Source of the DNA: a virus
IMG/VR virus record: IMGVR_UViG_3300046314_000148
Location: 32,001 to 96,000 of that record
Direction: 5' to 3' (one strand)
DNA length: 64,000 bases
Part shown: piece by piece, positions 18,867-52,195 of the stretch
Position numbering within the stretch: the first letter of the stretch is position 1
Layout: every line of letters starts with the position of its first letter
The notes under the pieces: generated by a model
Told to the model about the DNA's origin: nothing
The model's input: the letters and a program-made list of their open reading frames with translations, nothing else
Databases searched by the model: none
Made by a program: the position numbers and the translations under genes

Positions 18867-19157
18867 ATGGACATATCCAGAGATAAGTGGAAAGACGATG
18901 CCAAGTGCATTAAGTTTGACACAAATCTATTCTTCGATACATATGAAGAAGACCCAGAAATCAGAGCCGATGTAGATGAGATGTGCTTTGGCTGCCCCGT
19001 AGCAAGAAAATGTTTTGCTATCGGTGTTTCTCAGAAATCCTGGGGAGTATGGGGTGGCATATACTTGGAGGATGGCGAAATATCTAAAGAGTTTAACAGA
19101 CACAAGACAAAGGCTCAGTGGGGTAACACTTGGCAAAAGCTAACCAATGATAGATAG
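18867..19157 (+). CDS. whiB: WhiB-family Fe-S transcription factor
   Basis: C-x25-CxxC-x5-C plus GVWGG turn. Confidence 0.9.
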   Translation: MDISRDKWKDDAKCIKFDTNLFFDTYEEDPEIRADVDEMCFGCPVARKCFAIGVSQKSWGVWGGIYLEDGEISKEFNRHKTKAQWGNTWQKLTNDR

Positions 19158-25846: not shown

Positions 25847-25939
25847 AGTTACATAGTATAGTAGGCAGTACGCCATAGTCTATAAACTGTATGCAGCAGA
25901 TGGCTAGGGGAAGCATGGGTTCGAGTCCCATTGTAACTA
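25847..25939 (+). ncRNA. tRNA-like RNA with enlarged non-canonical anticodon domain
   Basis: Perfect acceptor AGTTACA/TGTAACT, D arm and T arm ATGGG-TTCGAGT-CCCAT, but about 42 nt between them with no standard anticodon stem-loop. Confidence 0.65.
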
Positions 25940-39677: not shown

Positions 39678-40224
39678 CCTTAGACATTACAAGCCTATAG
39701 ATTTCATTAGCTTCCTCTGATACACCCATTGTAGACATAAGCTGCTTTACTCTTTCGTAAATGGGAATCTCCTTTGCAGAGATAACAAAATTTGGACTAC
39801 CATATTGCATAGTCTGCTCTTCGATCTCTATGTCTCTGCTCTCTTGATTTACTGGGACATCCACGATCTTAGCTATAGCAATTGCTGTGCCTTCTGGATC
39901 GGAAACAAGGTCGTTGAAGTCTATGATGGTATCTGCTTTCTTATATATTTCTTTTAAAGTTTTTATGTATGTCCAAGTCATAAAGTTAACTACATTCCAT
40001 AGTCCAGTTTCTGGATCGAAACCCTTGTGGTACATTCCAATAGCTGCGTCTGAAGTAATGCAGTCGAGAGGGTTTCTGACTACAGAGATTAGGTGCTGGC
40101 CCTTCTTGTAGTGTTCAAGGTCATGGGACCTTACTGTATCTGTACCTAGTCTGGTAGTAAGTAGGGCCTTAAGGTAGTGGCTGCCTGAACGAGGATAAGC
40201 GTATATGTAGAATGATTTAGTCAC
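39658..40224 (-). CDS. sulfotransferase-like P-loop protein (paralogue of 28937..29464)
   Basis: AYPRSGSHYL, VRNPLDCITS, F.DL..DP. Confidence 0.65.
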   Translation of the reverse strand: MTKSFYIYAYPRSGSHYLKALLTTRLGTDTVRSHDLEHYKKGQHLISVVRNPLDCITSDAAIGMYHKGFDPETGLWNVVNFMTWTYIKTLKEIYKKADTIIDFNDLVSDPEGTAIAIAKIVDVPVNQESRDIEIEEQTMQYGSPNFVISAKEIPIYERVKQLMSTMGVSEEANEIYRLVMSKAIGTQR

Positions 40225-40691
40225 CTAGCAAGTATATCAAATTTTCGGGGGATAAGAAGTGATACCCATAACCCCTAGTATAAGATATACTTAGTAGTAT
40301 GAACACAACCGATTATGTAATGTCTTTCTTAGCTATAGGATATGCTGTATGTATTGCTATAGTGGTATGGCTTGAGAATAAGAAGTAACTTCCATACGAT
40401 TGTTTAGCTCAATAAACAATCATAAGGGATATGCTTACGATTGTTTAAGATCTATGTTGCAATAGAGACAGAACCCTTTATCCGTTTTCCATATACCCAC
40501 ATAGAAGTGCTTTCCCCTTGAGCATCTTATCTTTGATCTCAAAGCATAGATATACCAGAAGTAGCTAATTAGAAAGAGTTTGAATTTAATTTTCATAGCT
40601 CAAGTATAGCCTATATCGCCTCAAAGAGTGGATCTAAATACCCCTGAATATTTAAAAGATACTTTAAGAAATTCTTAAAATTACTTTTAAG

Positions 40692-40722
40692 TTATACACA
40701 TTTATACACAGATTTATCCACA
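40692..40722 (+). promoter_or_regulatory. three tandem DnaA boxes next to an AT-rich tract
   Basis: TTATACACA 40692, TTATACACA 40702, TTATCCACA 40714. Confidence 0.6.
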
Positions 40723-41474
40723 TATTGATGATAAAGATGTTACTGATTATATATGGATATAGCGTATAAGTGAGATTTGGTAGAGAGATATGGATAATGG
40801 AGCGTATATAATGCGGCAATCGTAATACTTTTCCGCAGATTCTTCGGTCTATCTATTCAAATCCGCATATCCTTCTATGCACATAACTATCCAAATGTCA
40901 ATACTTGTTACCAAAATGTTATATATAAATCTGGAAAAATATAGCCATATCGTAATGTTATTTAAATAAACATACATGCTTTATATCAAAACATATAACA
41001 AATTGGGGATAACTTTATATCAGGATATCAGAGCTATGTGTTATTACTACTAGGGGGAAAGTTGCTATAGATCGTAATCTATTTTGTACCCTGGACTTTG
41101 TCCAGATCCTTAACAGGATGAGTAGTAATTATATCTGGGGTATAAGAGAACAGTCTAGCTATACCAGTAACACTAGTAAAGGCAAACCATAGAGAGGTAT
41201 GACCTTCTATCTTCTTTACTACGTCTTTATGTATAGGTAGGTTATTTGCATTGGCAAAATGTCTTGGACTCATATATATATTATACCCTTGAATCTGGAA
41301 AAATAATGATCTATCGTAATACTATTTGACAAATAGGATATCTGCCATGAATCTGGAAAAATATTTGATCTTCGTAATGTCTTTGTATATAGTACATGCT
41401 TGACAAAGCTTGAAATATGTGGTCGCCCCCAGAAAAGCCCTCTTGTCAAGGGCTAATCCAGTTTCTTTTATAGA

Positions 41475-41738
41475 TTACTCATCAAGGCTACCGAGCAACT
41501 CGTCTAAGTCCTCGAATGTCAAGTCCTCGTAGCCAAGACCAGCAAGCAATAGGTCAAACGATTCCTCGATAAAGCGAGTAGCAACGGGTGTAGTCTTGAC
41601 AATGTCGTTTGCGATAGCGTAGGCAAGTGGCAAGCCAATGTCGTTGTATTCTACAAAGTCAGCAAACTCCTCGTCTTGACGATAGTTGAGCCATAGGTCA
41701 GCAAGGATACTTGCCTTGTTATCGAATGTAGTTGCCAT
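41475..41738 (-). CDS. hypothetical early-region protein
   Basis: RBS AAAGGA; acidic. Confidence 0.7.
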   Translation of the reverse strand: MATTFDNKASILADLWLNYRQDEEFADFVEYNDIGLPLAYAIANDIVKTTPVATRFIEESFDLLLAGLGYEDLTFEDLDELLGSLDE

Positions 41739-41910
41739 TTTGTTCCTTTTCGTATTTAGCGGATTCTGCGATTTCTTGTAGTCTGCGGTATGTTATGTTA
41801 TTTGTTCTGGCGAAATAGATTCCTAGTTGCTCAATGTCTATCGTTAGGTCATTTATCAACTTACTTATTCTCTCTGCCAGTTTTTCCTCTACCGATTCTT
41901 TTCTGGGCAT
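41719..41910 (-). CDS. hypothetical early-region protein
   Basis: TTGAC promoter upstream; RBS AGGA. Confidence 0.65.
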   Translation of the reverse strand: MPRKESVEEKLAERISKLINDLTIDIEQLGIYFARTNNITYRRLQEIAESAKYEKEQNGNYIR

Positions 41911-42102
41911 TATGTTTCCTATTCAGTTATGCTCTTATTGTATCAAAACTAGAGGGGGAAGTCAAGAGTATTACGTCCTAACTTCCCCCCTGCTTTGCAC
42001 AGACAACCAACCCCTTAGTCTCTGTGCTATGGCGAGGAGTAGTCTCAACCCACCAAATCTATTAAGTTATATATTAATTATATCTCAAAACGGAGGTGCC
42101 CG

Positions 42103-42453
42103 TTAGAACAAGACTTCTTCAGCGTACGTAGGCAGGCCATAGAAGATGGCACGGAGCCTGTCGCTTAGCATGTCATCCTTATCAGCAATGAAGCCATTCA
42201 GGCCATACCATAGGTCTGGTTCGTGGTCCTGAAAGTATGGGTCATTAAGAATAAGATTATTAGTCTCAGCTTGTGTTAGCTCGATCGGTTCTCCCAACTC
42301 TTCGTGGGTAGTTGCTCCTTGGTATTCATTCACCTGATAGATATGAATGTACCATGGACCACTGTGCTCGTAGATAGGGAATGCATCTGCATCTAGGCCT
42401 ACCTCCAACTCACGCTGGAAGATGTTTAGGTCATAGTCAATCTCATTACTCAT
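42103..42453 (-). CDS. hypothetical early-region protein
   Basis: RBS AAGGA before MSNEID. Confidence 0.65.
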   Translation of the reverse strand: MSNEIDYDLNIFQRELEVGLDADAFPIYEHSGPWYIHIYQVNEYQGATTHEELGEPIELTQAETNNLILNDPYFQDHEPDLWYGLNGFIADKDDMLSDRLRAIFYGLPTYAEEVLF

Positions 42454-42634
42454 TTGATTCCTTCTTAGCACCGATGGTAACATTGGTATGTACGTGGTAG
42501 TACTTCTCTACAAGTAGTCTGGCATTCTCCCAGTACTCTAGTTCGATGGCGGTATCCTTATGCATTTGGACTAGGTCATCCACTAGTGCACGGACAATGC
42601 GTTCCTTGCTGTGCAAATCAAAACCATTAGACAT
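42446..42634 (-). CDS. hypothetical early-region protein
   Basis: Overlapping operon organisation. Confidence 0.55.
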   Translation of the reverse strand: MSNGFDLHSKERIVRALVDDLVQMHKDTAIELEYWENARLLVEKYYHVHTNVTIGAKKESNE

Positions 42635-42914
42635 AGTGCAAACCTTCTTCTTCAGTCTCGTGCTCTGGACATCCACAGCAGTTCAAGCAAAACTCTTTCT
42701 GGTCAGGACATCTAAACACGTCCATGATTACTTCGCTATCTGAAGTTAGATAAACCTGACAGTCATCACAGATTTCTACTTCATCCTCGTCTAGCAGTTG
42801 GAAGACTTCTCCAGCCTCTACGTGGTTGTAGAACTTCTCAATCAGTTCTTTCTCCCACTGTGGGTCAATTAGCAGGGTGTATTTCTTAACTAACAATTGG
42901 GGCCTCTTCTCCAT
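42627..42914 (-). CDS. Cys-rich hypothetical protein
   Basis: CDDC...C...CLNCCGC. Confidence 0.6.
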   Translation of the reverse strand: MEKRPQLLVKKYTLLIDPQWEKELIEKFYNHVEAGEVFQLLDEDEVEICDDCQVYLTSDSEVIMDVFRCPDQKEFCLNCCGCPEHETEEEGLHYV

Positions 42915-43305
42915 AGATGTCCTTCAATGCTACCACAGAGTCACAGTCAATGTCAATCATGCCTTCATCGCATTCTTCACAGGCAGGGTCTGCTTCCCAA
43001 TCTGTCTCTTCAGTACGGCAGTCGCAGTCACGGTATACCCAAGTAGGAATCTCGGTGTACTCATCTTCCCAAGGATTCTCGGTGATGTAGTACTGGATAC
43101 GGTTTACAAAACTATAGCCAGCGACAATGTAAGTGCCACCGTCGCCATCAATCTCAGTCCAGATAAACTTAGGGTCATAGTTGCGAATGAACTCCTGCTC
43201 TTCTCCATAGGTCTCGAAGGCAAAGAAATCTAAATCATTCTTAAATTTATTATTGATTGGCTTGAAGGTATCTACCCAAGATTGGTAGGTATAAAACTTT
43301 GACAT
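42886..43305 (-). CDS. conserved phage hypothetical protein
   Basis: FETYG.E..F...IWT..DGD...GY.FVNRI.YYIT. Confidence 0.7.
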   Translation of the reverse strand: MSKFYTYQSWVDTFKPINNKFKNDLDFFAFETYGEEQEFIRNYDPKFIWTEIDGDGGTYIVAGYSFVNRIQYYITENPWEDEYTEIPTWVYRDCDCRTEETDWEADPACEECDEGMIDIDCDSVVALKDIYGEEAPIVS

Positions 43306-43314
43306 GGGGTCTCC

Positions 43315-43821
43315 TTAGAAGTGGAAGTCTACAGGTATAAGATACCATGAATCATCAAGTTTGTCAAGCATATACTGGAAATTAGTTGAGCCAGTTTCTG
43401 CGTCGTAGAAGTATGAGTTGAAGTCCCAGTTACCAGCCAGCATGTCAATACACTTAGACAAAGAATAAAGACTGAAAGCATAATCAGTGTTACCCTGATA
43501 CTTATCTAACTCAGTATTGATATCTAGAGTTGATAGGTTTTTGCGGTATACGTCAAACTCTTGCTTCCGTGCCTCAATGGCCCAATCAATCTTTTCCTGA
43601 ATGCCTTCACGGCCATGCTTAGTAAAACTAATAATGTGATTAGGTGAACTCTTATAAGGGTCACCGTCTACAAAACGACCTCCGCCAATAACGAACCAGT
43701 CATACCATGAATTATGTGCATACTCATTGCCACCCATTTCTGAGTTTAGAGTATCTTCGGCTACTCGCATAGCCATGTCTTCATCTTCTGCTCTTACAGC
43801 AATGTATTGTAAAACGTGCAT
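43315..43821 (-). CDS. conserved phage hypothetical protein
   Basis: WYDWFVIGGGRF...VDFHF. Confidence 0.7.
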   Translation of the reverse strand: MHVLQYIAVRAEDEDMAMRVAEDTLNSEMGGNEYAHNSWYDWFVIGGGRFVDGDPYKSSPNHIISFTKHGREGIQEKIDWAIEARKQEFDVYRKNLSTLDINTELDKYQGNTDYAFSLYSLSKCIDMLAGNWDFNSYFYDAETGSTNFQYMLDKLDDSWYLIPVDFHF

Positions 43822-43864
43822 TGGGGTTCTTTCTTTTGGGGTATATATATATTATGACATGTGG

Positions 43865-44362
43865 CTAGGCATTTGTCAAGTCTTTTTCAAAAGAATTTAG
43901 ATAGTCGTCTAGCATAGGCAACCCGAAGATCGAATACTCTTCCGTAATGCCATTGTACTTGCTAATAAACTTATTAGTCTGGAAGTCAATCTCATAATAC
44001 CCCTCGCAGAATAGGTCATCCGCTGCGAAGTCAATGGAGTTTACAAGTGGCACGTTAGTCTTGTCACGAACTACCTCTAGGATTTCACATCCAGTATCCC
44101 TGGTGAGCGACGGGTATGACTCTTTGAAAGCGTCTACGCCAGCTCGGTTAGTAACCTCATTATAAATGGAATCAACTTCCTCATCCGTAATGAAACGGGT
44201 AAACTCAATGCCAGCCTTTAGGTAGTTCACATTCTGTGAGTCAGACAGGAAGTGCAGAATCCATGCACCTGTGTGTGAAGGGTAGCCATCCCATTGGCCA
44301 TACTGTGCAATCTTAATCTCGCCTAGTTCATTCTTTACAACTGTTAGGTTACGTGTACCCAT
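43865..44362 (-). CDS. conserved phage hypothetical protein (MGTR...QY.QWDGYP type)
   Basis: RBS GAAAGGA before MGTRNLT. Confidence 0.7.
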   Translation of the reverse strand: MGTRNLTVVKNELGEIKIAQYGQWDGYPSHTGAWILHFLSDSQNVNYLKAGIEFTRFITDEEVDSIYNEVTNRAGVDAFKESYPSLTRDTGCEILEVVRDKTNVPLVNSIDFAADDLFCEGYYEIDFQTNKFISKYNGITEEYSIFGLPMLDDYLNSFEKDLTNA

Positions 44363-44522
44363 GCTGGGTCCTTTCGTTGGGGTTATCGAATACTCTATTC
44401 TCTCACAGAACTGGGGAAAAGTCAAGCCTATCGTAATTGAATTTATAATGAGTTGCTATACTAGTTAGTTTGTGGCCGCCCCAGATCCCCAGCTTTGTCA
44501 AGCCAGGGACCAGGCGTGTCGC

Positions 44523-45530
44523 TTATGCCATAGCGACTTGCTGAACAATCTTTAGCAGACGGTTCTTCTCGGCGTTCACCATTGGGTCAAAGCCTGAAGC
44601 CGAAGCCAAGATAGATTCGTTAGAGCCACCACGAGAGTTGCGATACCAGTCAAGACGCTCGGTTAGTCCGTTCAAAGCACCCCAAGCAGTTCCAGCAATC
44701 ATGCCGTTTTGGTTGCCACGATAGATAGACTGAATCAAGTCAATCTTGCCGTCATACTTCTTCTGTGAACCCTTAGCGTCCTTAGCAGGGGCAGGGTAGG
44801 CAAGGGCAACAATCTCCTCGAACTGACGCTCGGTGATAGTCTTTTCAATCATAGCCTGTGCCATCTTGTCGAACTCGTCCATGTATTTGTTAGCCAAGCC
44901 AAGAGCCTCACGAGCAACGGCAATCTTGCCTTCTGCTGTCTGAGTGTGGCGAATCTTGAAAGACTGCTTAGGACCTTTTCGGTTAGCACCAAGAGCAAGG
45001 TTTAGAGTGTTAGCACATACAACACGAACAGGGGTAATGCTTGCCTGAATAGCAACTGAACCATCGTGAGAGGTGTTGATTAGCAGATAGGTGTTGATTT
45101 TGTCACTAACGCCAGTAGGGTCTAGGATAGTCTCACGCTCAAGAGCAAGTGAACCGAATACCTGACGACCACCCTTGATAGAGCCAGCAGTCTCCCAGCG
45201 TCCTCCGCCATCGAGAATGTTGTCACCAAAAGCAAACAGGTCTTCGTTCTGAAGCACCTTGTAACGCTCGCCAACAACACCAAGAATGTCGTTCTGGGTC
45301 TTGTCGAATGGGTTAGTTCGGGTAACGAAAGAATAGGTCTTGTCTGAGTTGAAGCCATCAGGGGTAGCAACATCTTCTAGACGAACATTCCAGTTGTCAA
45401 GGTGTGCCAACTTTAGCATTTTCTGAGTAGTGACTTCTTCGGTAAAGACTGTTCCAAGTCCATGCCATGCTGGCTCTCGCAATGAAGCGAAAGCGGTCTG
45501 TCCATCTACTGATTCTAGTTCGTGAGCCAT
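44523..45530 (-). CDS. DUF932/DUF945-family protein
   Basis: AWHGLG, ETAGS..GG, SHDGS, TPVRVVCANTL, RHT. Confidence 0.88.
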   Translation of the reverse strand: MAHELESVDGQTAFASLREPAWHGLGTVFTEEVTTQKMLKLAHLDNWNVRLEDVATPDGFNSDKTYSFVTRTNPFDKTQNDILGVVGERYKVLQNEDLFAFGDNILDGGGRWETAGSIKGGRQVFGSLALERETILDPTGVSDKINTYLLINTSHDGSVAIQASITPVRVVCANTLNLALGANRKGPKQSFKIRHTQTAEGKIAVAREALGLANKYMDEFDKMAQAMIEKTITERQFEEIVALAYPAPAKDAKGSQKKYDGKIDLIQSIYRGNQNGMIAGTAWGALNGLTERLDWYRNSRGGSNESILASASGFDPMVNAEKNRLLKIVQQVAMA

Positions 45531-45570
45531 GGGGAGCCAACTTTCTTTAGGGGTGATTAGTTATAGTATT

Positions 45571-45599
45571 ATTTTACAGGATACCACCGACAATGTCAA
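45571..45599 (-). promoter_or_regulatory. strong sigmaA promoter of the DUF932 gene
   Basis: TTGACA-N17-TAAAAT on the minus strand. Confidence 0.8.
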
Positions 45600-45994
45600 C
45601 TCTATTTAGCAAACATTTTGGGGACATCTTAAAGCTATCGTAAATAGTTGACTTTTGATCTCGGATGGGGGCGGCCCAGAAAAGTGGCCAGTTTTTCGTC
45701 ATGGCCAGGACGTTTCATACCCCTATGAAAACATGCGACGTGATTCTCTCTCGAGCACATCTAGTTTGTCAATTAGCTCCGACAGTAGGTCCCTGTAGTA
45801 GCCTGCATCAAAGTTATATTTATGAGACTCAAGATATTCATCATGCAGTTCAACAGTGTACTGTCTGATTAGTTTATTTAGTTTACTCTTCGTCATCGTG
45901 TCCCCAAAAGTTATTAGAGCAGTCTAGGCAAAGGCCTAGTTCTTCTGCATGGATGTCTGCGTCAACCATTGTTCCACAATCAACGCAAGGTAGT

Positions 45995-46177
45995 TCACTC
46001 GTCTTCTTCGTCATCTTCATCCTCTTCTTCTGGCAGTTCTTCTACGGTAATTTCATCTACCTCTGCAGAATGGCTCCAGTTCTCATAGTTCCAGCCTGCC
46101 TTCTCGGCTTCTTCCTCGTTTTCGAACTCATCTTCAGTCCAGTATTCAACGACGGTCTTTACATAAAACTTTGGCAT
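45995..46177 (-). CDS. small acidic protein
   Basis: Very acidic 60-aa ORF with RBS. Confidence 0.6.
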   Translation of the reverse strand: MPKFYVKTVVEYWTEDEFENEEEAEKAGWNYENWSHSAEVDEITVEELPEEEDEDDEEDE

Positions 46178-46340
46178 TCGCTTATCCTAACATCATCATC
46201 TCGAATTGTAGCCAGTCATCAAACTCATACTGGCAATCATTACATAGGGAGTGAACCGAGTCTACTGGGTCATAGTCTAGGGTTTCTTCGCATTGATAGC
46301 ATTTGTTCATAGTGTCTACTTTAGCATTACCCTCGGACAT

Positions 46341-46526
46341 TTAGCAACTCCCATCGGTAGGAATCTGCTCTTCTGGCACACCCATCATTCTTAGGACAGA
46401 CTGGCTTCTGTTGATGAGTCCCTCGAGGTAGTCACCAAACGAATCGTTGATGTCTAGACCCTCTTTCTCATCGATGAACATAGCGGTATCACTAAGTAGA
46501 TAGTTGATAATCTCTTCGTTAGTCAT
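46341..46526 (-). CDS. hypothetical early-region protein
   Basis: MTNEEIINYLL... Confidence 0.55.
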   Translation of the reverse strand: MTNEEIINYLLSDTAMFIDEKEGLDINDSFGDYLEGLINRSQSVLRMMGVPEEQIPTDGSC

Positions 46527-46862
46527 TGCCTTAGCCAACTGTTTCCTCCTCGACCTGAATTGACCAGTCACCGTTAGGCAGCCATTCGTGCTGGGCGATG
46601 GCTTGTGAGATTACTTCATCTTCACTTAGTTTCTCATCTGACTCAACTTCATACCAAGCAGAGTATTCAATCTCGTAGCGGTATCCCATTAGTTGTTCTC
46701 CTCTTCATACTGGCATAGGCAAGGTGTAACACGGATAAGTCCCCTGCTTTGGTGAACAAGGGCATAACCCTCGCATGCTTCACAGAAATAGGTTGTGTCT
46801 TTGGTCAAGGTCATAGGGGTTTCCTTTCGTTGTGCTTCCATTATAGGGGTAGGGTCAGACAT

Positions 46863-47063
46863 TTAGTCAAGCCACTTAGAAACATCTTGTCCATTTAGAA
46901 CTGCTTCCATGAACGGGAACTTCTGGTAGTCTGGTAGGTCTTCCAAAACCTCAAGGTACTCTTCTGGGAACTCGTTGATGTCGGTAACAATAATGTCATC
47001 TCCACCCCAGTTGCCATCACGAGATACGTATAGAGCGTGTGGTGCAAACTTGGTGTAAGCCAT
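46863..47063 (-). CDS. hypothetical early-region protein
   Basis: RBS AAAGGAG; promoter upstream. Confidence 0.65.
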   Translation of the reverse strand: MAYTKFAPHALYVSRDGNWGGDDIIVTDINEFPEEYLEVLEDLPDYQKFPFMEAVLNGQDVSKWLD

Positions 47064-47361
47064 GATTTCTCCTTTGATTGATTACTATAACTATACAGCT
47101 ACCCTCGGACATTATGGGGATTTAATCGGCGTGTCGTAAATAAAAGTTTTTCTGGCCAGGAGGGGGCGACCCCAGATCACCACAAATGTCAAGCTTGGTT
47201 TTTGACAGATGCGGTGTGGGGTGCCAAGAGTCCTTGCGGTTGTTCCTGACTTGCTTCGTTATCGTGTTAGCCCTCACGCTTGTAAGCCGTTGCCTAGGAC
47301 ACTTACAAGAGGTTTGCTGTGAGCAGTTTACCTAGACTTGCTCAGGTCTTAGTTCATCTTG

Positions 47362-47811
47362 TTAGATGAGGTCAATAATGGAGGAGTAGGTGCTTGCGTT
47401 TACTTCCTCCTGAGTAGTCATACGCAAGATGCGTAGGTTCTGCTCTAGGACTGCCTTGCGGTTTAGGTGCTTGTTGCCAATCCACTCAGACTGGTTAGGC
47501 TTGACTGGTGCTTCAGGTCGTTTAGGGAAGCCAGCAATCTTGTCAGCATCAAAGTTTAGTTCCATACGACCAGAGTGTCCAAAGTTTAGTCGAATGTCTG
47601 AGTTGTAGTCATAGCCAATCTTATTAGCGTTCTTAGCAACAAACTCTGAAACAAACTTAGCAACCTTCTTCTTGTATGCTTCAGTTTCCTTTTCATACTT
47701 CTCAAAGTCAGCAGGGTAGGAAGCGACATCAGCGTCAATCTTAGCGATAGCAGCCTCAATCTGAGAAATGATAGCGGAGGTAGGAACTTTTACAGAGATA
47801 GCACGAGCCAT
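47362..47811 (-). CDS. hypothetical early-region protein
   Basis: Conserved 5' UTR motif; biased codons. Confidence 0.75.
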   Translation of the reverse strand: MARAISVKVPTSAIISQIEAAIAKIDADVASYPADFEKYEKETEAYKKKVAKFVSEFVAKNANKIGYDYNSDIRLNFGHSGRMELNFDADKIAGFPKRPEAPVKPNQSEWIGNKHLNRKAVLEQNLRILRMTTQEEVNASTYSSIIDLI

Positions 47812-47901
47812 TAGGGGTATTCTTTCTTTAGGGGTTGTTTAGTTAGTTGGGCAGTTTTTCCAAAAGACATACCCAGGTCTTTATCTCTAACTAAATAGAG
47901 T

Positions 47902-48057
47902 TTACTTGTCTGCCTTTACGGTAGACCAACGAGGTGAACCATTCACATCAAGACGAACTCGGAACGAGCCGTTCTTGTTTGCTACTACTTCCTGAATAAC
48001 GCCAGATACCTTTGACTTGGCGGTGGTGAACTGTGAGCCAACAGTTAGAGTGTTCAT
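47902..48057 (-). CDS. small SH3-like protein (not in ORF track)
   Basis: MNTLTVGSQFTTAKSKVSGVIQEV...RWSTVK. Confidence 0.6.
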   Translation of the reverse strand: MNTLTVGSQFTTAKSKVSGVIQEVVANKNGSFRVRLDVNGSPRWSTVKADK

Positions 48058-48620
48058 TTTGCTTCCATTCCGATACGGGTGTATCTGTGTGTTTTGTGAT
48101 TTACAACTTTTGTTGTATTACTATTATGACAGAAAGAATAGAGAATGTCAAGCACATTTGATAACTAAATGATAACAACATTTCTTTTTTATTCTTCGTG
48201 TTTCGTTCTCTGTTCTTCTGTATGTATCTATTATGGGGCATAATGGTGTGATTGTCAAGTCTAAATGCCCCTTTTTGTTTGTGGGTTTTCACAAAATCTG
48301 GGGAAAAAGATTGTTCATCTTAAACTTGACAAGACTGATCGTTTGGGGTCGCCCCCTTTCGGGGGACGTGTCAAACACGCCAGTCAAAAACAACAGCTAG
48401 AATCATCCATGCAACCATTAAAGCAAACGGACCTGCGAATAGGAAACATCCCAATAGCATTGGGTCACCGTTTACTTCTTGTTCTTGTTCTGCCATTTCT
48501 CTATTGTCCCTCCAAAGATACCGTCAAAAATCATTAGTACAGCGAGAATAATCGGGAATAGCAAGTATAACGCAAAAAGGCCTAAGATAGCAAAGATAAA
48601 TAGCCATAGGATTATTTCCA

Positions 48621-49142
48621 TTATTGGGCAGACCCCCTAACAACAATCCAGATTAGAGCCTGCATTGAGCGTGGCGTCATCCCATACTTAGCTGCAACTG
48701 TAGTTACAGCGTCTGCCATAACCTTATACTGGGCTTGAGTAGGTGACTTCTTTTCAATACCTAGGGCACGTAACATCCATACGTCAATAACAACGGCATT
48801 CTCATTGCCTGCAATAGCACGTGCAAAGGCGTTAGTCTTCTGACCCTTGAGAGCGTCAAATCCCATAGTGAGAGCATTGTTAGCCATTACGATATTGTTC
48901 TTTAGGCAAGTTACTGGTTCCCCTAGTGAGAATTGAATAGCACGTGCAACATTTACTGACCAACGTTCACGTGGTGAGAATGCCGAGACAACACTTGCCC
49001 CGACGTCAAGGGTAGTGTCAAGGTTACGTGCAACCTGTTCTGCAATACGTTCAGCGTCAACATACCATTTACTGGCTTGTTCAACCTGACCGAATGTAGC
49101 CTTCTTAGCAATATCCGAATAAATCTTTACGTAGTTAGTCAT
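48621..49142 (-). CDS. DUF7178-like protein, helical and glycosylase-related
   Basis: WY..A, SAFSPR..W..N, G.KT.AF, VIDVWM, QALIW. Confidence 0.65.
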   Translation of the reverse strand: MTNYVKIYSDIAKKATFGQVEQASKWYVDAERIAEQVARNLDTTLDVGASVVSAFSPRERWSVNVARAIQFSLGEPVTCLKNNIVMANNALTMGFDALKGQKTNAFARAIAGNENAVVIDVWMLRALGIEKKSPTQAQYKVMADAVTTVAAKYGMTPRSMQALIWIVVRGSAQ

Positions 49143-49404
49143 TGGGGTATTTCTTTCTCTTGGGGTTGTTAGATTAGTTTAGCAAACTTATTAGATAAAG
49201 TCAAACACATCGCCATCGAATCCGCCAATATCTAGATCCGCCATTAGTTCGCTTGGGCTGATCTCACCCTCGGCCATCATTGCGAATAGTTCCCTTACGT
49301 ACTCTTCATCCATTATTTTACCTTATCTAGAATTATCATTAGTTCTACCAACTGTTCATCAGTTAGTTTATCTATTGCATCATTATTGATTACATTATCA
49401 AACA

Positions 49405-49677
49405 TTAGTCTTCCTCTTCCATGCACCATGCGTCTAGGCGGTATGAATTGATTACATCAATAGCAGATACCTTATCGCTGCCACGGAATGATACGCCATC
49501 GGGAAGGGTAATCGTGCGGTTGTAGTCATCTTCCCAGTAAGCGTCAATTGCTTCAACGGCAGTAGGAATCATGCCTAGTGGAATCGGTGGATAGCAATTG
49601 CTTCTAAAGTGCATTGCCAACTGAGTTTCTAGTGTTTCGTTTAGTCCTGCAATATCCATTGCGGTTGCCATGCCCAT
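49405..49677 (-). CDS. hypothetical early-region protein
   Basis: HFRSNCYPPIP; RBS GAAAGG. Confidence 0.7.
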   Translation of the reverse strand: MGMATAMDIAGLNETLETQLAMHFRSNCYPPIPLGMIPTAVEAIDAYWEDDYNRTITLPDGVSFRGSDKVSAIDVINSYRLDAWCMEEED

Positions 49678-50012
49678 AGTGAGCCTTTCTTTTGGGGTTA
49701 TAGAATAAGTTTACAGGATTAGTTACTCATTGTCAAGGGCTTTACGCAACTTTTCTTGGCGTGTCCCCTTGTATTTTTTAGGCGTGACGACTTGCTTCTT
49801 GCCTGCCTTTAGCATATTGTGGAATAAGGCTTGCGACTCAGCCTTGCGTCTCGCTTCATTTCTTTTACCTAACATACTAAAACTTTATCACGAACCTCAG
49901 ACATTTTGGGGAATTCGGGGAAACTTTCTTAACTATCTTAAACTTGACAAATAGGGTAAAAAGGGGCGGCCAGATCCAGGAGCCTTTGTCAAGCTCCCAG
50001 TCTGGCGTGTCG

Positions 50013-50183
50013 CTAAAGTCCCTTTACGGCATTACGAAAACGAATCTCATCAAAGCGAGGATTGTCACTCTTGAACATAGAAACGAAATCGCCAACCATC
50101 TTTGTGAATAGGGCAGGGTGGGTCTTGTCGCTTGCGTAGTGTAGAATCTTTGCGGTTTCAACATAGTCTTTACGGGTCATCAT
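50013..50183 (-). CDS. small phage protein MTRKDY...DNPRFD (not in ORF track)
   Basis: Open frame of 56 aa with a recognisable phage motif. Confidence 0.65.
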   Translation of the reverse strand: MMTRKDYVETAKILHYASDKTHPALFTKMVGDFVSMFKSDNPRFDEIRFRNAVKGL

Positions 50184-50185
50184 TA

Positions 50186-50362
50186 TTAGTTACCACGGTT
50201 TTCTGCTAGGCGTAGGATAAACTGGGCAGTCTTTAGGTCAACTGCGGCTGAGGCATAGCCAACCATCGTGGCTAGGGCTAGGTCATTACGGTCACCAAAC
50301 TCTGCGTTTAGAATAGCAAGAGCCTTGTCCATTAGTTCTAGTGAGTTCTTTTCCATTTTCAT
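50186..50362 (-). CDS. hypothetical early-region protein
   Basis: RBS AGGA; promoter upstream. Confidence 0.6.
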   Translation of the reverse strand: MKMEKNSLELMDKALAILNAEFGDRNDLALATMVGYASAAVDLKTAQFILRLAENRGN

Positions 50363-50910
50363 TTCCTGCTCTTTAGATGTTTTTAGTTTAGCAGTAGGGT
50401 CAGACATTTATTTGAATGACTCAACCATTATGATTGGGTATTCCAGTCCAAACTTGAAAAGGTCACGGGTATCGACAGCGGACACGGTCATTACTCCGTC
50501 AAGTAGGAATGTAACCTTTAGCATTTCTGACTTTGGCATTAGTTGCCCTTTCTTTTTGATTATAGATTTATCTTAGCATGGGGGTCAGACATTTAAATAA
50601 AGTCTTCGACATCCAAACCAAGATAGACAATGGCTTTTGCTAGAGGTAGCAGTCCATCAAGTTCATCGCAGTTTGGGCAAACAACTGTGTCGCTAGTGAA
50701 AACACCCTCGCAGTATACGCACATCTTGTCCATTTAGTTTTCCTTTCTTCTGATACTAAAAGACTAGCACAAGCCACAGACATTTATAGCCAAAACACGA
50801 CTTTTTTCTTTGTAAGTTTCTACAAGCTTTTGGGGGATCTTTTGTAGACTACGTAAGTTATCCACAGAGTTATCCACAGGGGGCGACCCCGAAGGGGCCG
50901 ATTTGTCAAA

Positions 50911-51105
50911 TCAATCGAATGACCATTGGGAAGCATACATCTCCCCGATAGCCTCGTCACGAAGGTGGCGGTCTTCCGCCTGTCGCAGATACTCCTTCTG
51001 CTCAGGGGTCATGGCTGCGTCAAGGGCAGCCTGCTCCTCCTGCCAAGCGAGGAAAGCCTCGAACTCAGCCTGGACTTCTTCTTGGGTCATCTCTGATAGA
51101 AACAT
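50911..51105 (-). CDS. small acidic helical protein
   Basis: RBS GAAAGG; TTGACA-N17-TAGATT promoter. Confidence 0.65.
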   Translation of the reverse strand: MFLSEMTQEEVQAEFEAFLAWQEEQAALDAAMTPEQKEYLRQAEDRHLRDEAIGEMYASQWSFD

Positions 51106-51264
51106 AGTTTACCTTTCGTTATAAGATAAATCTAGCATAGGGGTCAGACATTGTCAAATCCAACACGCCAACATTCGGGGGGAAGATCTCGATCATCTTA
51201 ACTTGACAGCTTGGATCTTTTGGGGCCGCCCCTTTCGGGGTAGTTTGTCAAATCGGACACGCTG

Positions 51265-51486
51265 TTAGGCTAGAACCTTATCTAGAACCTTGGCAATCTG
51301 AGGGTAGAACACTAGGGCAACCGCTAGAGTGATACCAATCTTTACACCAGCAAAGAAAACATTTTCAACGGTATCGCTAGGCTCTGCCCCTGCTAGCAGA
51401 ATGAACAGATACAGGGCTAGATAAGTGCCAGCAACAACAGGGATAGCAACAACACCAGCGATTAGGCGACGGATAGCAAACTTCAT
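51265..51486 (-). CDS. small two-TM membrane protein
   Basis: Two hydrophobic helices. Confidence 0.65.
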   Translation of the reverse strand: MKFAIRRLIAGVVAIPVVAGTYLALYLFILLAGAEPSDTVENVFFAGVKIGITLAVALVFYPQIAKVLDKVLA

Positions 51487-52195
51487 TGGGTTACTCGCTC
51501 TCAGGGGTAGTGAATAGGTCAGACGGGTTAGATAGCATTATGTCAATCTGATAAATCAGGGTTTCCATTTCTTCGATAGTCATTAGATAACCTCGAACTC
51601 TAGGATTTCGTTAGCAAAGAACTTGTCGCTGTAAAACTTCATTAGCATTTCAGCGTGGATTGGGTCATAGGATGGGGTGATGATTGAGCCGTCTAGTAGG
51701 GTTACTTTGATTGTCATTTCTTTTTCCTTTTCTCTTTATGCTATAAGTCTAGGGTATGGGTCAGACAATGTCTAGTTAGACACGCCGTATTGTGCTACGC
51801 AAGACTCGCAAGCCTTTTCGTTGTTGTAGAGGTTACCCTCGCAGATTACACAGTGTCCTGTTGCTACATTTACCTTTAGTGAGTTCATCTCGAACTCCTT
51901 TCTTTTTTATTTCTTTTTCTTTATCTATATATATTCAAACATACATTAGGGGATTTGTCAAGTCTATTTAGGTAAACATTAGGTTAACAACTATCCACAG
52001 ATCGATCAAGTTATCCACAGGGGGCGACCCTAAAAATAGCTATTTGTCAAATCAGACACACCCATAGGGTCAAGATCCCGTTACAAAAACGTTATAAAAA
52101 ACTTTTGCGACACGCCGAGGGAAAATTTGACAAATGGTTATTAGTATGATTAACTATATATAGATAAAGATAGTTACTAAAAGAAAGGAGCCAAC

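Follow-up and report, generated by a model that had tools for sequence, protein, structure and literature searches.

The DNA analyzed here (the window) is a stretch of 64,000 nucleotides, namely, bases 32001 to 96000 of the 112,245-bp IMG/VR virus record IMGVR_UViG_3300046314_000148 (G000), a genome with a completeness rating of 100%. Between 41.4 and 52.1 kb, the window contains a block of about 34 small open reading frames (ORFs), with every gene on the minus strand. The gaps between these early genes harbor nine whole or partial copies of a dyad element that consists of a GC-rich core, GGGGYCGCCCC, and inward-facing TTGACA and TGTCAA arms. Family searches of 30 early ORFs gave Pfam matches above the cut-off for only two proteins, DUF932 (44523-45530) and DUF7178 (48621-49142), and no DNA-binding family was found among the 30. 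The complete genome encodes neither a sigma factor nor a T7-type polymerase. It contains a gene for a WhiB-family protein (PF02467, E = 1.8e-12; 18888-19064, plus strand), a marker that points to an actinobacterium as the host, and the public runs containing the stretch are without exception freshwater metagenomes. A near similarity search against cultured phages gave no match, and the sole match in a distant search was the DUF932 gene of Streptomyces BE phages. The phage is a lake-water, siphovirus-like actinophage related to the Stanwilliamsviridae, with a freshwater actinobacterium as its host. Using the DUF932 protein as the query, we retrieved 442 related IMG/VR contigs, from which 80 loci were fetched; further relatives came from an exact-pattern scan. 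The perfect dyad was present in 27 of 81 stretches, i.e., the 80 fetched loci and the window. The public-run data consisted of assembled contigs only, from which transcript ends, strand, and rare junctions cannot be read.

With at most one mismatch, GGGGYCGCCCC occurs at 8 places in the 112,245-bp genome, all of them between 41419 and 52031 of the window, and the core at 49963 has two mismatches. There are 5 exact matches to GGGGNNNCCCC in the window versus 0.24 expected, and 5 matches to the whole 49-bp pattern, with 3 mismatches allowed, versus 0.00 expected. The dyad element is real, non-random, and confined to the early block (10.6 kb). An initial annotation of this DNA had described nine 49-bp sites dividing the early region into cassettes, and inspection of the sequence confirmed the nine cores, their positions, and their central triplets. 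Both inward arms are present in the four copies that had been called complete, i.e., 48326-48374, 49944-49992, 51203-51251, and 41400-41449 (spacer of 14), of which 48326-48374 and 51203-51251 are perfect. All copies are indeed intergenic, with the qualification that arm 48369-48374 includes the TGA stop of gene 48371-48496. The genome-wide scan found the core only at the early block, so the motif is not equally common genome-wide. The proposed location at cassette boundaries and the promoter-like arms without a -10 were borne out by the distances to stop codons and by a GC-filled -10 position. The copies described as partial do contain cores; however, two of them (50880 and 52021) carry DnaA boxes instead of a second arm.

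The same arrangement was observed across the related loci. Inward TTGACA-N-TGTCAA pairs occur at N = 37 (22 pairs), 38 (13), 36 (5), and 39 (7) and are almost absent at other spacings between 10 and 70, and no such peak was found for the outward arrangement; the spacing is thus conserved in relatives, with the peak at N = 37. Arm statistics were based on 96 non-redundant cores of the G000 type. Flanking upstream TTGACA hexamers are all 12 to 15 bp from the core (exactly 13 bp in 32 of 40), and downstream TGTCAA hexamers are exactly 13 bp away in 18 of 25 cases. Both arms accompany 14 cores, only the upstream arm 18, only the downstream arm 11, and neither arm 40; DnaA boxes lie downstream of 13 cores, and the upstream arm is likewise present at 8 of these. 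Each arm occurs independently of the other, and the dyad is no obligate unit. Arms are all-or-none: 38 perfect upstream hexamers were found next to five one-mismatch forms (TTGACT and TTGATA), and these are the commonest -35 variants among the real promoters of the phage. Relative to transcription, the core center is YCG in 39 and CGR in 46 cases, with flanks that are alike for both, and orthologous sites drift between GG-YCG-CC and GG-YCGR-CC. The two orientations reported initially are therefore found, but they result from a near-palindrome around the central CG, and inversion is not needed to account for them. Among 45 unique dyads, the upstream arm starts 0 to 30 nt past a stop codon in most cases, and the TGA stop lies within TTGACA in 9, whereas the next -10 lies anywhere between 57 and 182 nt from the dyad. 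The position of the site is thus linked to the 3' end of the preceding unit and has no fixed phase with the next promoter, which argues against an upstream activator site. Coordinates of the individual sites are provided in Table 1.

TABLE 1 Dyad sites and a related linker in the early block (window coordinates; downstream and sense refer to leftward transcription)
Type	Position	Strand	Core	Arms and other motifs	Surroundings
Complete dyad	41400-41449	-	41419-41429 (GTGGTCGCCCC)	Arms 41400-41405 and 41444-41449; one spacer of 14	Downstream of the stop of gene 41475-41738; sense RNA has a 7-bp hairpin capped by TTGACA, then UUUUC
Linker without GC core	41953-41990	-		15-bp hairpin; 3' arm includes a -35 (TTGACT) that, with a 17-bp spacer and TACAAT, forms a real promoter	
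Half site	44453-44501	-	44472-44482	Sense-upstream arm 44496-44501; GATC at 44484	DUF932 stop codon 40 nt upstream; ~17-bp hairpin with a TTGACA apex and a 3' arm that extends into the core
Core only	45649-45697	-	45668-45678 (GGGGCGGCCCA on +)	Degenerate downstream arm GTCAA; GATC at 45657	Promoter 45599-45571 of the DUF932 gene downstream
Half site	47144-47192	-	47163-47173	Sense-upstream arm 47187-47192; GATC at 47175	TTACGACACGCC downstream, then TGTC-box promoter 47111-47090
Perfect dyad	48326-48374	-	48345-48355	Arms 48326-48331 and 48369-48374; GATC at 48337	Sense RNA has a CCCCC-GAAA-GGGGG hairpin; then two consensus promoters, 48258-48230 and 48151-48123
Complete dyad, degenerate core (2 mismatches)	49944-49992	-	49963-49973	GATC at 49973	Long hairpin with TTGACA apex; sense-strand T5 run past the core; TGTC-box promoter 49903-49882 next
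DnaA-type site	50858-50909	-	50880-50890	Sense-upstream arm 50904-50909; perfect DnaA boxes 50870-50878 and 50858-50866	The two boxes lie where the second arm is expected
Perfect dyad	51203-51251	-	51222-51232	Arms 51203-51208 and 51246-51251; GATC at 51214	CCCC-GAAA-GGGG hairpin; promoter 51157-51129 next
DnaA-type site	51991-52050	-	52021-52031	Arm 52045-52050; DnaA boxes 52011-52019 and 51991-51999 (one mismatch)	GATCGATC separates the DnaA boxes; site heads the leftward block

Read in the direction of transcription, a full site consists of the stop codon of the upstream gene, TTGACA, 13 nt, the core, 13 nt, and TGTCAA. It forms part of a longer module, as it is followed directly by GTTTAAGAT or TTACGA (TTAAGAT/TTACGA), then by TTTTCCCC, often by GACACGCC, and then by a promoter. 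A promoter-like match was found 40 to 150 bp downstream of at least seven of the nine sites, and these promoters are of two types, either TTGACA-17-TAnnnT or a TGTC box followed by 8 nt and TAnnnT. When the site itself was examined as a promoter, its -35 and spacing fitted sigmaA (13 bp plus GGGG gives 17 bp) but an AT-rich -10 was lacking, its position being occupied by YCGCCC or CGRCCC. At 50880 and 52021, a consensus pair of DnaA boxes (TTATCCACA) directly past the core replaces N13-TGTCAA. The sequence GATC is present within 7 of the 9 sites, whereas the 8.4 kb of early coding sequence contains only 4.

The spacers had initially been considered unrelated in sequence and fixed in length. 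The length is fixed, with a 13-bp peak in relatives, but the upstream spacer is not free of content, since it holds a hairpin arm and GATC recurs in most of the sites. The sense-upstream spacer takes one of two forms, namely, N3-CCCC-GAAA, paired to the core GGGG (48345 and 51222), or the 3' arm of a 9- to 17-bp hairpin with TTGACA at its apex (41421, 44472, and 49963). Stems of the second form vary among copies and relatives with pairing kept, with z-scores down to -4.9, and an upstream-half hairpin was present in nearly all copies. G.T pairs exceeded A.C pairs on the sense strand by 14 to 4, a weak bias; a stricter ungapped test leaves just 7 hairpins. The hairpins of the upstream half are clearly under selection. 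A U-run lies close to the hairpin in only a few copies (41421, 49963, L009 9237 and 10290, and L035 7441), and a scan for consensus intrinsic terminators found none at the dyads. Two further ideas were discarded. An oriented mini-terminator, with a T-run past the core in the YCG orientation, showed no consistent pattern, and the comparison of sense and antisense fold energies at all TTGACA sites was dropped, as it is confounded by base composition.

In other branches of the family, a different core is found at the same place, namely, GGGGCGCCCC, GGGCGAGCCC, GGGGGTACCCCC, GGGGGGCCCC, or GGGGTCGGGC. The first of these is a perfect palindrome in a lineage that tolerates GCGC, and the last, from L061, is non-palindromic and has one orientation in 8 of 9 copies. 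Because the core does not vary within a genome but changes from lineage to lineage, a putative lineage-specific factor probably reads it as well. CCGG, GCGC, and CGCG are each represented by 0 copies in the 112-kb genome versus approximately 245 expected; most relatives also avoid these sequences, and some lineages tolerate GCGC. The odd extra base in the G000 core may be a way round this restriction-site avoidance. Relative to the rest of the genome, the early block (41400-52100) shows a 2- to 4-fold depletion of most 4-bp palindromes, with ratios of 0.25 for AGCT, 0.30 for ATAT, 0.33 for TTAA, 0.39 for AATT, 0.39 for GATC, 0.43 for TGCA, and 0.47 for GTAC, which fits DNA that enters first and faces restriction. 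GATC is retained within the linkers despite this depletion.

The DUF932 match links the early block to a cultured phage, Streptomyces phage LukeCage (NC_048723, Stanwilliamsviridae, BE cluster), whose left end contains 26 small genes in leftward orientation, the second of them encoding DUF932. The order within its linkers is a stop codon, a UUCG-capped hairpin, GCCG-CCC-CGGC, AAAAGATCTTGA, and a promoter, and GCCGCCCCGG occurs in 13 copies per 12.3-kb terminal repeat and in 0 copies in the approximately 108 kb between the repeats. The two phages are thus alike in their approximately 26 co-directional small genes, in having DUF932 near the end, and in the restriction of the core, which in LukeCage is to the repeats. 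In contrast, the core differs, the TTGACA/TGTCAA arms are lacking in LukeCage, and DUF932 is the only protein common to both early blocks. Since the linker order is the same with so little gene content shared, the linker design is older than the gene content. The design common to both comprises a hairpin, a 4-bp GC stem with a 3-nt center, GATC, and a promoter; the freshwater branch has added the TTGACA arms, which are therefore not essential to this linker class. The early block of G000 is probably a terminal repeat that was collapsed in assembly. This status rests on the analogy with LukeCage because DUF932 is single-copy in the assemblies, as observed in five complete relatives. No published description of the early linkers of BE-cluster phages was found in the literature.

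From the position, geometry, conservation, and hairpin potential of the sites, we infer binding, termination, and the identity of the reader as follows. We tentatively favor the view that the sites are boundary or insulator elements of the early transcription units, in which a hairpin resembling the promoter-early stem-loops (PeSLs) of T4-type phages lies within a promoter-like docking site for the sigmaA polymerase or for DnaA. Each site would mark the 3' end of an early transcription unit amid small genes of the host-takeover type. The upstream half of the sense transcript would fold into a stable hairpin, either CCCC-GAAA-GGGG, which includes the left half-core, or a long UUGACA-capped stem, and this hairpin would attenuate or end transcription and protect the 3' end. 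As DNA, the site has the geometry of one or two disabled promoters, each with a near-perfect -35, 17 bp, and a GC-rich -10 position that cannot be melted. The sigmaA holoenzyme of the host could dock facing the core from either side without firing, and the pair of DnaA boxes may serve the same role for DnaA in some copies; DnaA on its box is known to stop a transcribing polymerase. Docked protein and hairpin would together form a two-way block, such that each strong early promoter drives its own cassette only, and the conserved linkers could provide homology for cassette swaps, as T4-type PeSLs do.

The arms and core appear to be read as DNA sequence at a fixed distance, besides forming an RNA hairpin, because the arms never covary, each persists alone, DnaA boxes can substitute for one of them, and the length of the spacer outlasts its sequence and structure. 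Given a phage without its own sigma factor, T7-type polymerase, or recombinase, the simplest reader of the arms would be region 4 of the host sigmaA. The docking of RNA polymerase, or its capture by a decoy, fits the geometry of the site better than a stoperator-like protein site or recombination does. A bolder version, which we regard as a rather unlikely one, is that the sites are two-way insulators and host-factor traps, in which a lineage-specific core with a putative phage reader is flanked, at promoter spacing, by -35 arms and DnaA boxes that aim both DNA-melting machines of the host at DNA resistant to opening. If so, they would divide up the terminal-repeat early block and, during takeover, might also sequester polymerase or DnaA.

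Several observations weigh against the insulator interpretation. The LukeCage linkers have a core and GATC without TTGACA arms, and 40 of the 96 cores are flanked by neither arm. Intrinsic termination is doubtful by Escherichia coli rules because most copies are without a U-tract and the CCCC-GAAA-GGGG stems are only 4 to 5 bp long, and a polymerase held by a -35 alone is a weak roadblock. One low-depth RNA-library contig spans site 45668, from read-through or contaminating DNA, and site 52021 has no sense gene directly upstream. GATC was found in 34 of 45 dyads, at variable positions, versus approximately 7% expected, and the insulator model gives no explanation for this enrichment. Finally, the constancy of the core per genome points to an additional reader specific to the lineage, for which the 30 early proteins yielded no candidate.

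Alternatively, the sites could be operators for a dimeric regulator, encoded by the phage or, with lower probability, by the host. This protein would recognize the core and contact the hexamers, which lie on one face of the helix at a distance of two turns; the regulator would act in early shut-off or timing in the manner of stoperators, and the likeness to a -35 would be a coincidence or reflect competition with sigmaA. We consider this unlikely, although it accounts for a core that is constant per genome and differs by lineage (GGGGYCGCCCC, GGGGCGCCCC, GGGCGAGCCC, GGGGGTACCCCC, and GGGGTCGGGC), for the prevailing orientation of the non-palindromic L061 core, and for a fixed spacing with free spacer sequence in an element limited to the early block. 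What it does not accommodate is that the arms stay the same in all lineages while the core changes, which implies two different readers, and that arms and core occur in every combination; moreover, the search of the 30 early proteins yielded no DNA-binding family, and the early blocks of G000 and LukeCage share DUF932 only. A purely RNA element, in which a 49-nt hairpin closed by UUGACA/UGUCAA and followed by UUUAAGAU acts as a terminator, processing site, or 3' stabilizer, would render the likeness to a -35 meaningless. The arms do pair at P > 0.5 in 38 of 45 dyads folded alone, with dG values of -10 to -23 kcal/mol, the sites lie close behind stop codons, and G.U pairs are biased to the sense strand. 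However, the arms are invariant and show no covariation, a lone arm is still conserved with nothing to compensate for it, one arm can be replaced by DnaA boxes, and the fixed loop length has no RNA rationale. Considering also the AU-rich base of the stem and the U-poor tail, an RNA element alone seems improbable.

Slightly more improbable still is an element of DNA topology, replication, or entry, i.e., a gyrase site resembling the repetitive extragenic palindromes (REP) or bacterial interspersed mosaic elements (BIME-2), an origin-like unit of DnaA boxes and GC cluster, or an entry stop or pause like the injection-stop region of T5. Such a role would suit sites at the 3' ends of strong co-directional units, and both the core GGYCGRCC and GATC are GRYC-type tetranucleotides according to what we take to be the gyrase consensus. 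A bacterial origin unwinding unit comprises tandem DnaA boxes, a GC-rich cluster, DnaA-trio repeats, and an AT-rich region. At 50858-50890 and 51991-52031, two tandem DnaA boxes directly adjoin the GC core; this arrangement, seen in two copies, is conserved in relatives, and an extra cluster of DnaA boxes with AT-rich iterons is found at 40.2 to 41.4 kb; the 2- to 4-fold depletion of most 4-bp palindromes in the early block would also agree with an entry element. Against this, DnaA boxes are present at only 13 of 96 cores, and no DnaA-trio run or clear trio periodicity was seen by eye past the GC core. The initial annotation had also suggested recombination sites that shuffle the cassettes, and att-like or integron-like sites cutting and rejoining cassettes at the core are, in our view, very improbable. 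The geometry of a 49- to 51-bp site with outer inverted hexamers and a central CG presumably resembles attP of the large serine integrases, and close relatives do differ in cassettes with linkers kept: in L010, another sequence stands in place of ORF 50911-51105 with a conserved site on either side, genes 50186-50539 are absent in L027, and there are other cassette-sized differences. In addition, contigs from relatives cease to match at the edge of core 50880 (50878-50885), which is explained by the different core of those relatives. No serine or tyrosine recombinase (PF00239 and PF00589) was found in the 100% complete genome, with matches obtained in control genomes, which extends the initial remark that none is visible in the window. 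Inverted cassettes were not found, the genes of the block being all co-directional, and nine active sites would destabilize a single lytic genome. The 715 ends of the 359 high-scoring segment pairs with relatives peak at ORF ends and not at cores, and exchange at the core is therefore unsupported. The L027 site was also considered as a fusion of the sites at 50880 and 51222, i.e., a deletion at the core, and was rejected, as it is the orthologue of 50880 with a different upstream gene. Cassette exchange by ordinary homologous recombination between conserved linkers, as in PeSLs, is plausible.

Further observations were made on the early promoters and their surroundings. Early promoters of the form TGTCnGnn-N8-TAnnnT are located at 45592-45571, 47111-47090, 49903-49882, 50782-50761, and 51150-51129, and AATGTCTGA matches among the early promoter boxes lie at 50408-50400 and 50593-50585. 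The box differs by lineage; in related lineages it is exactly TGTCGGTG, with 12 to 17 repeats per locus, which we take to be the actinobacterial PafBC/RecA-NDp motif. The possibility that TGTCAAGTTTAAGAT is a hidden PafBC-type or extended -10 promoter was rejected by eye because of a spacing and a final T that do not match such promoters. In the larger early genes, the leaders (43821-43835, 45530-45560, 47811-47840, and 49142-49170) share the pattern ACCCC-(T)AAAGAAAG-N-CCCC-N-ATG, an extended Shine-Dalgarno sequence bracketed by C-runs. A metatranscriptome contig of a relative, with a depth of approximately 1150, covers the 51-amino-acid gene 47902-48057 and its leader (47902-48196), and its neighbors are far lower. 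Adjoining site 47163, a 99-bp insertion (47221-47319) is present in G000 and G001 and not in L027, and insertions of a similar kind, of approximately 100 bp, are found in relatives at 47845 and 50018; the 99-bp insertion could encode a small structured RNA or be mobile. The region 40200-41400, which adjoins the early block, is AT-rich (GC 0.37) and has no long ORFs. It contains three phased DnaA-type boxes at 40692-40722, more boxes at 40789 and 41004, and at least five repeats of aatctggaaaaat-N-atcgtaat, and it is a candidate replication origin or genome-end region. Outside the block, the window has 16 tRNA genes in four clusters (8323-33652), of which the tRNA at 25847-25939 has an aberrant anticodon arm.

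Among known systems, the stoperators of cluster A mycobacteriophages resemble the dyad sites in being many copies of a short site that lies in narrow gaps between genes, close to where transcription units end, and is thought to block polymerase. However, stoperators are asymmetric, oriented sites of 13 to 14 bp that occur genome-wide and are bound by the immunity repressor of a temperate phage, whereas the sites described here are near-palindromic, confined to 10.6 kb, and balanced in their centers (39:46), and no repressor or integrase was found. The dyad sites thus do not have the properties of stoperators. REP and BIME of enterobacteria are likewise GC-rich extragenic palindromes just past stop codons, to which attenuation, mRNA stability, and the binding of gyrase or IHF have been credited, but they are chromosomal, are mobilized by RAYT transposases, and have no -35 hexamers at a fixed spacing.

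The PeSLs of T4-type phages combine a strong sigma70 promoter with a stem-loop that is generally GGGG...CCCC (Arbiol et al. 2010, PMC2839356; Comeau et al. 2014, PMC4122927). Their stem-loops terminate transcription in vivo (PMC2839356), they were shown to recombine, and their authors suspected a protein reader of the GGGG...CCCC motif (PMC2839356, PMC4122927). The sites of the early block share with them the repeated composite linkers amid small ORFan early genes of a plastic region, the consensus host promoter with a stable stem-loop and, here, a GGGG-NNN-CCCC core, and the variation of cassettes between relatives with linkers kept. A PeSL stem-loop can overlap the -35, and the linker at 41953-41990 is, by its sequence, of this class. 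The differences are equally clear. The phage is a siphovirus-like actinophage, of another family and host; the GC block stands in exact -10 register to the -35, often on both sides, with an optional mirror arm; the real promoter lies 40 to 110 bp further on; DnaA boxes may replace one arm, GATC is enriched, and the core is private to the lineage. By structural criteria, the present element is a variant of the PeSL; termination and exchange at its sites are predicted.

How large lytic phages insulate, time, and reshuffle arrays of early cassettes is known in outline only, and only for the T4 type. The sites described here would represent the same solution in uncultured actinophages of fresh water, a very large group with no relationship to the T4 type. 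Their grammar is legible, with a -35 hexamer, exactly 13 bp, a lineage-private GC core, and DnaA boxes as the alternative flank. Since cultured Streptomyces phages of the BE cluster possess the same class of linker in their terminal repeats, both the reader of the core and the parking of polymerase can be tested at the bench.

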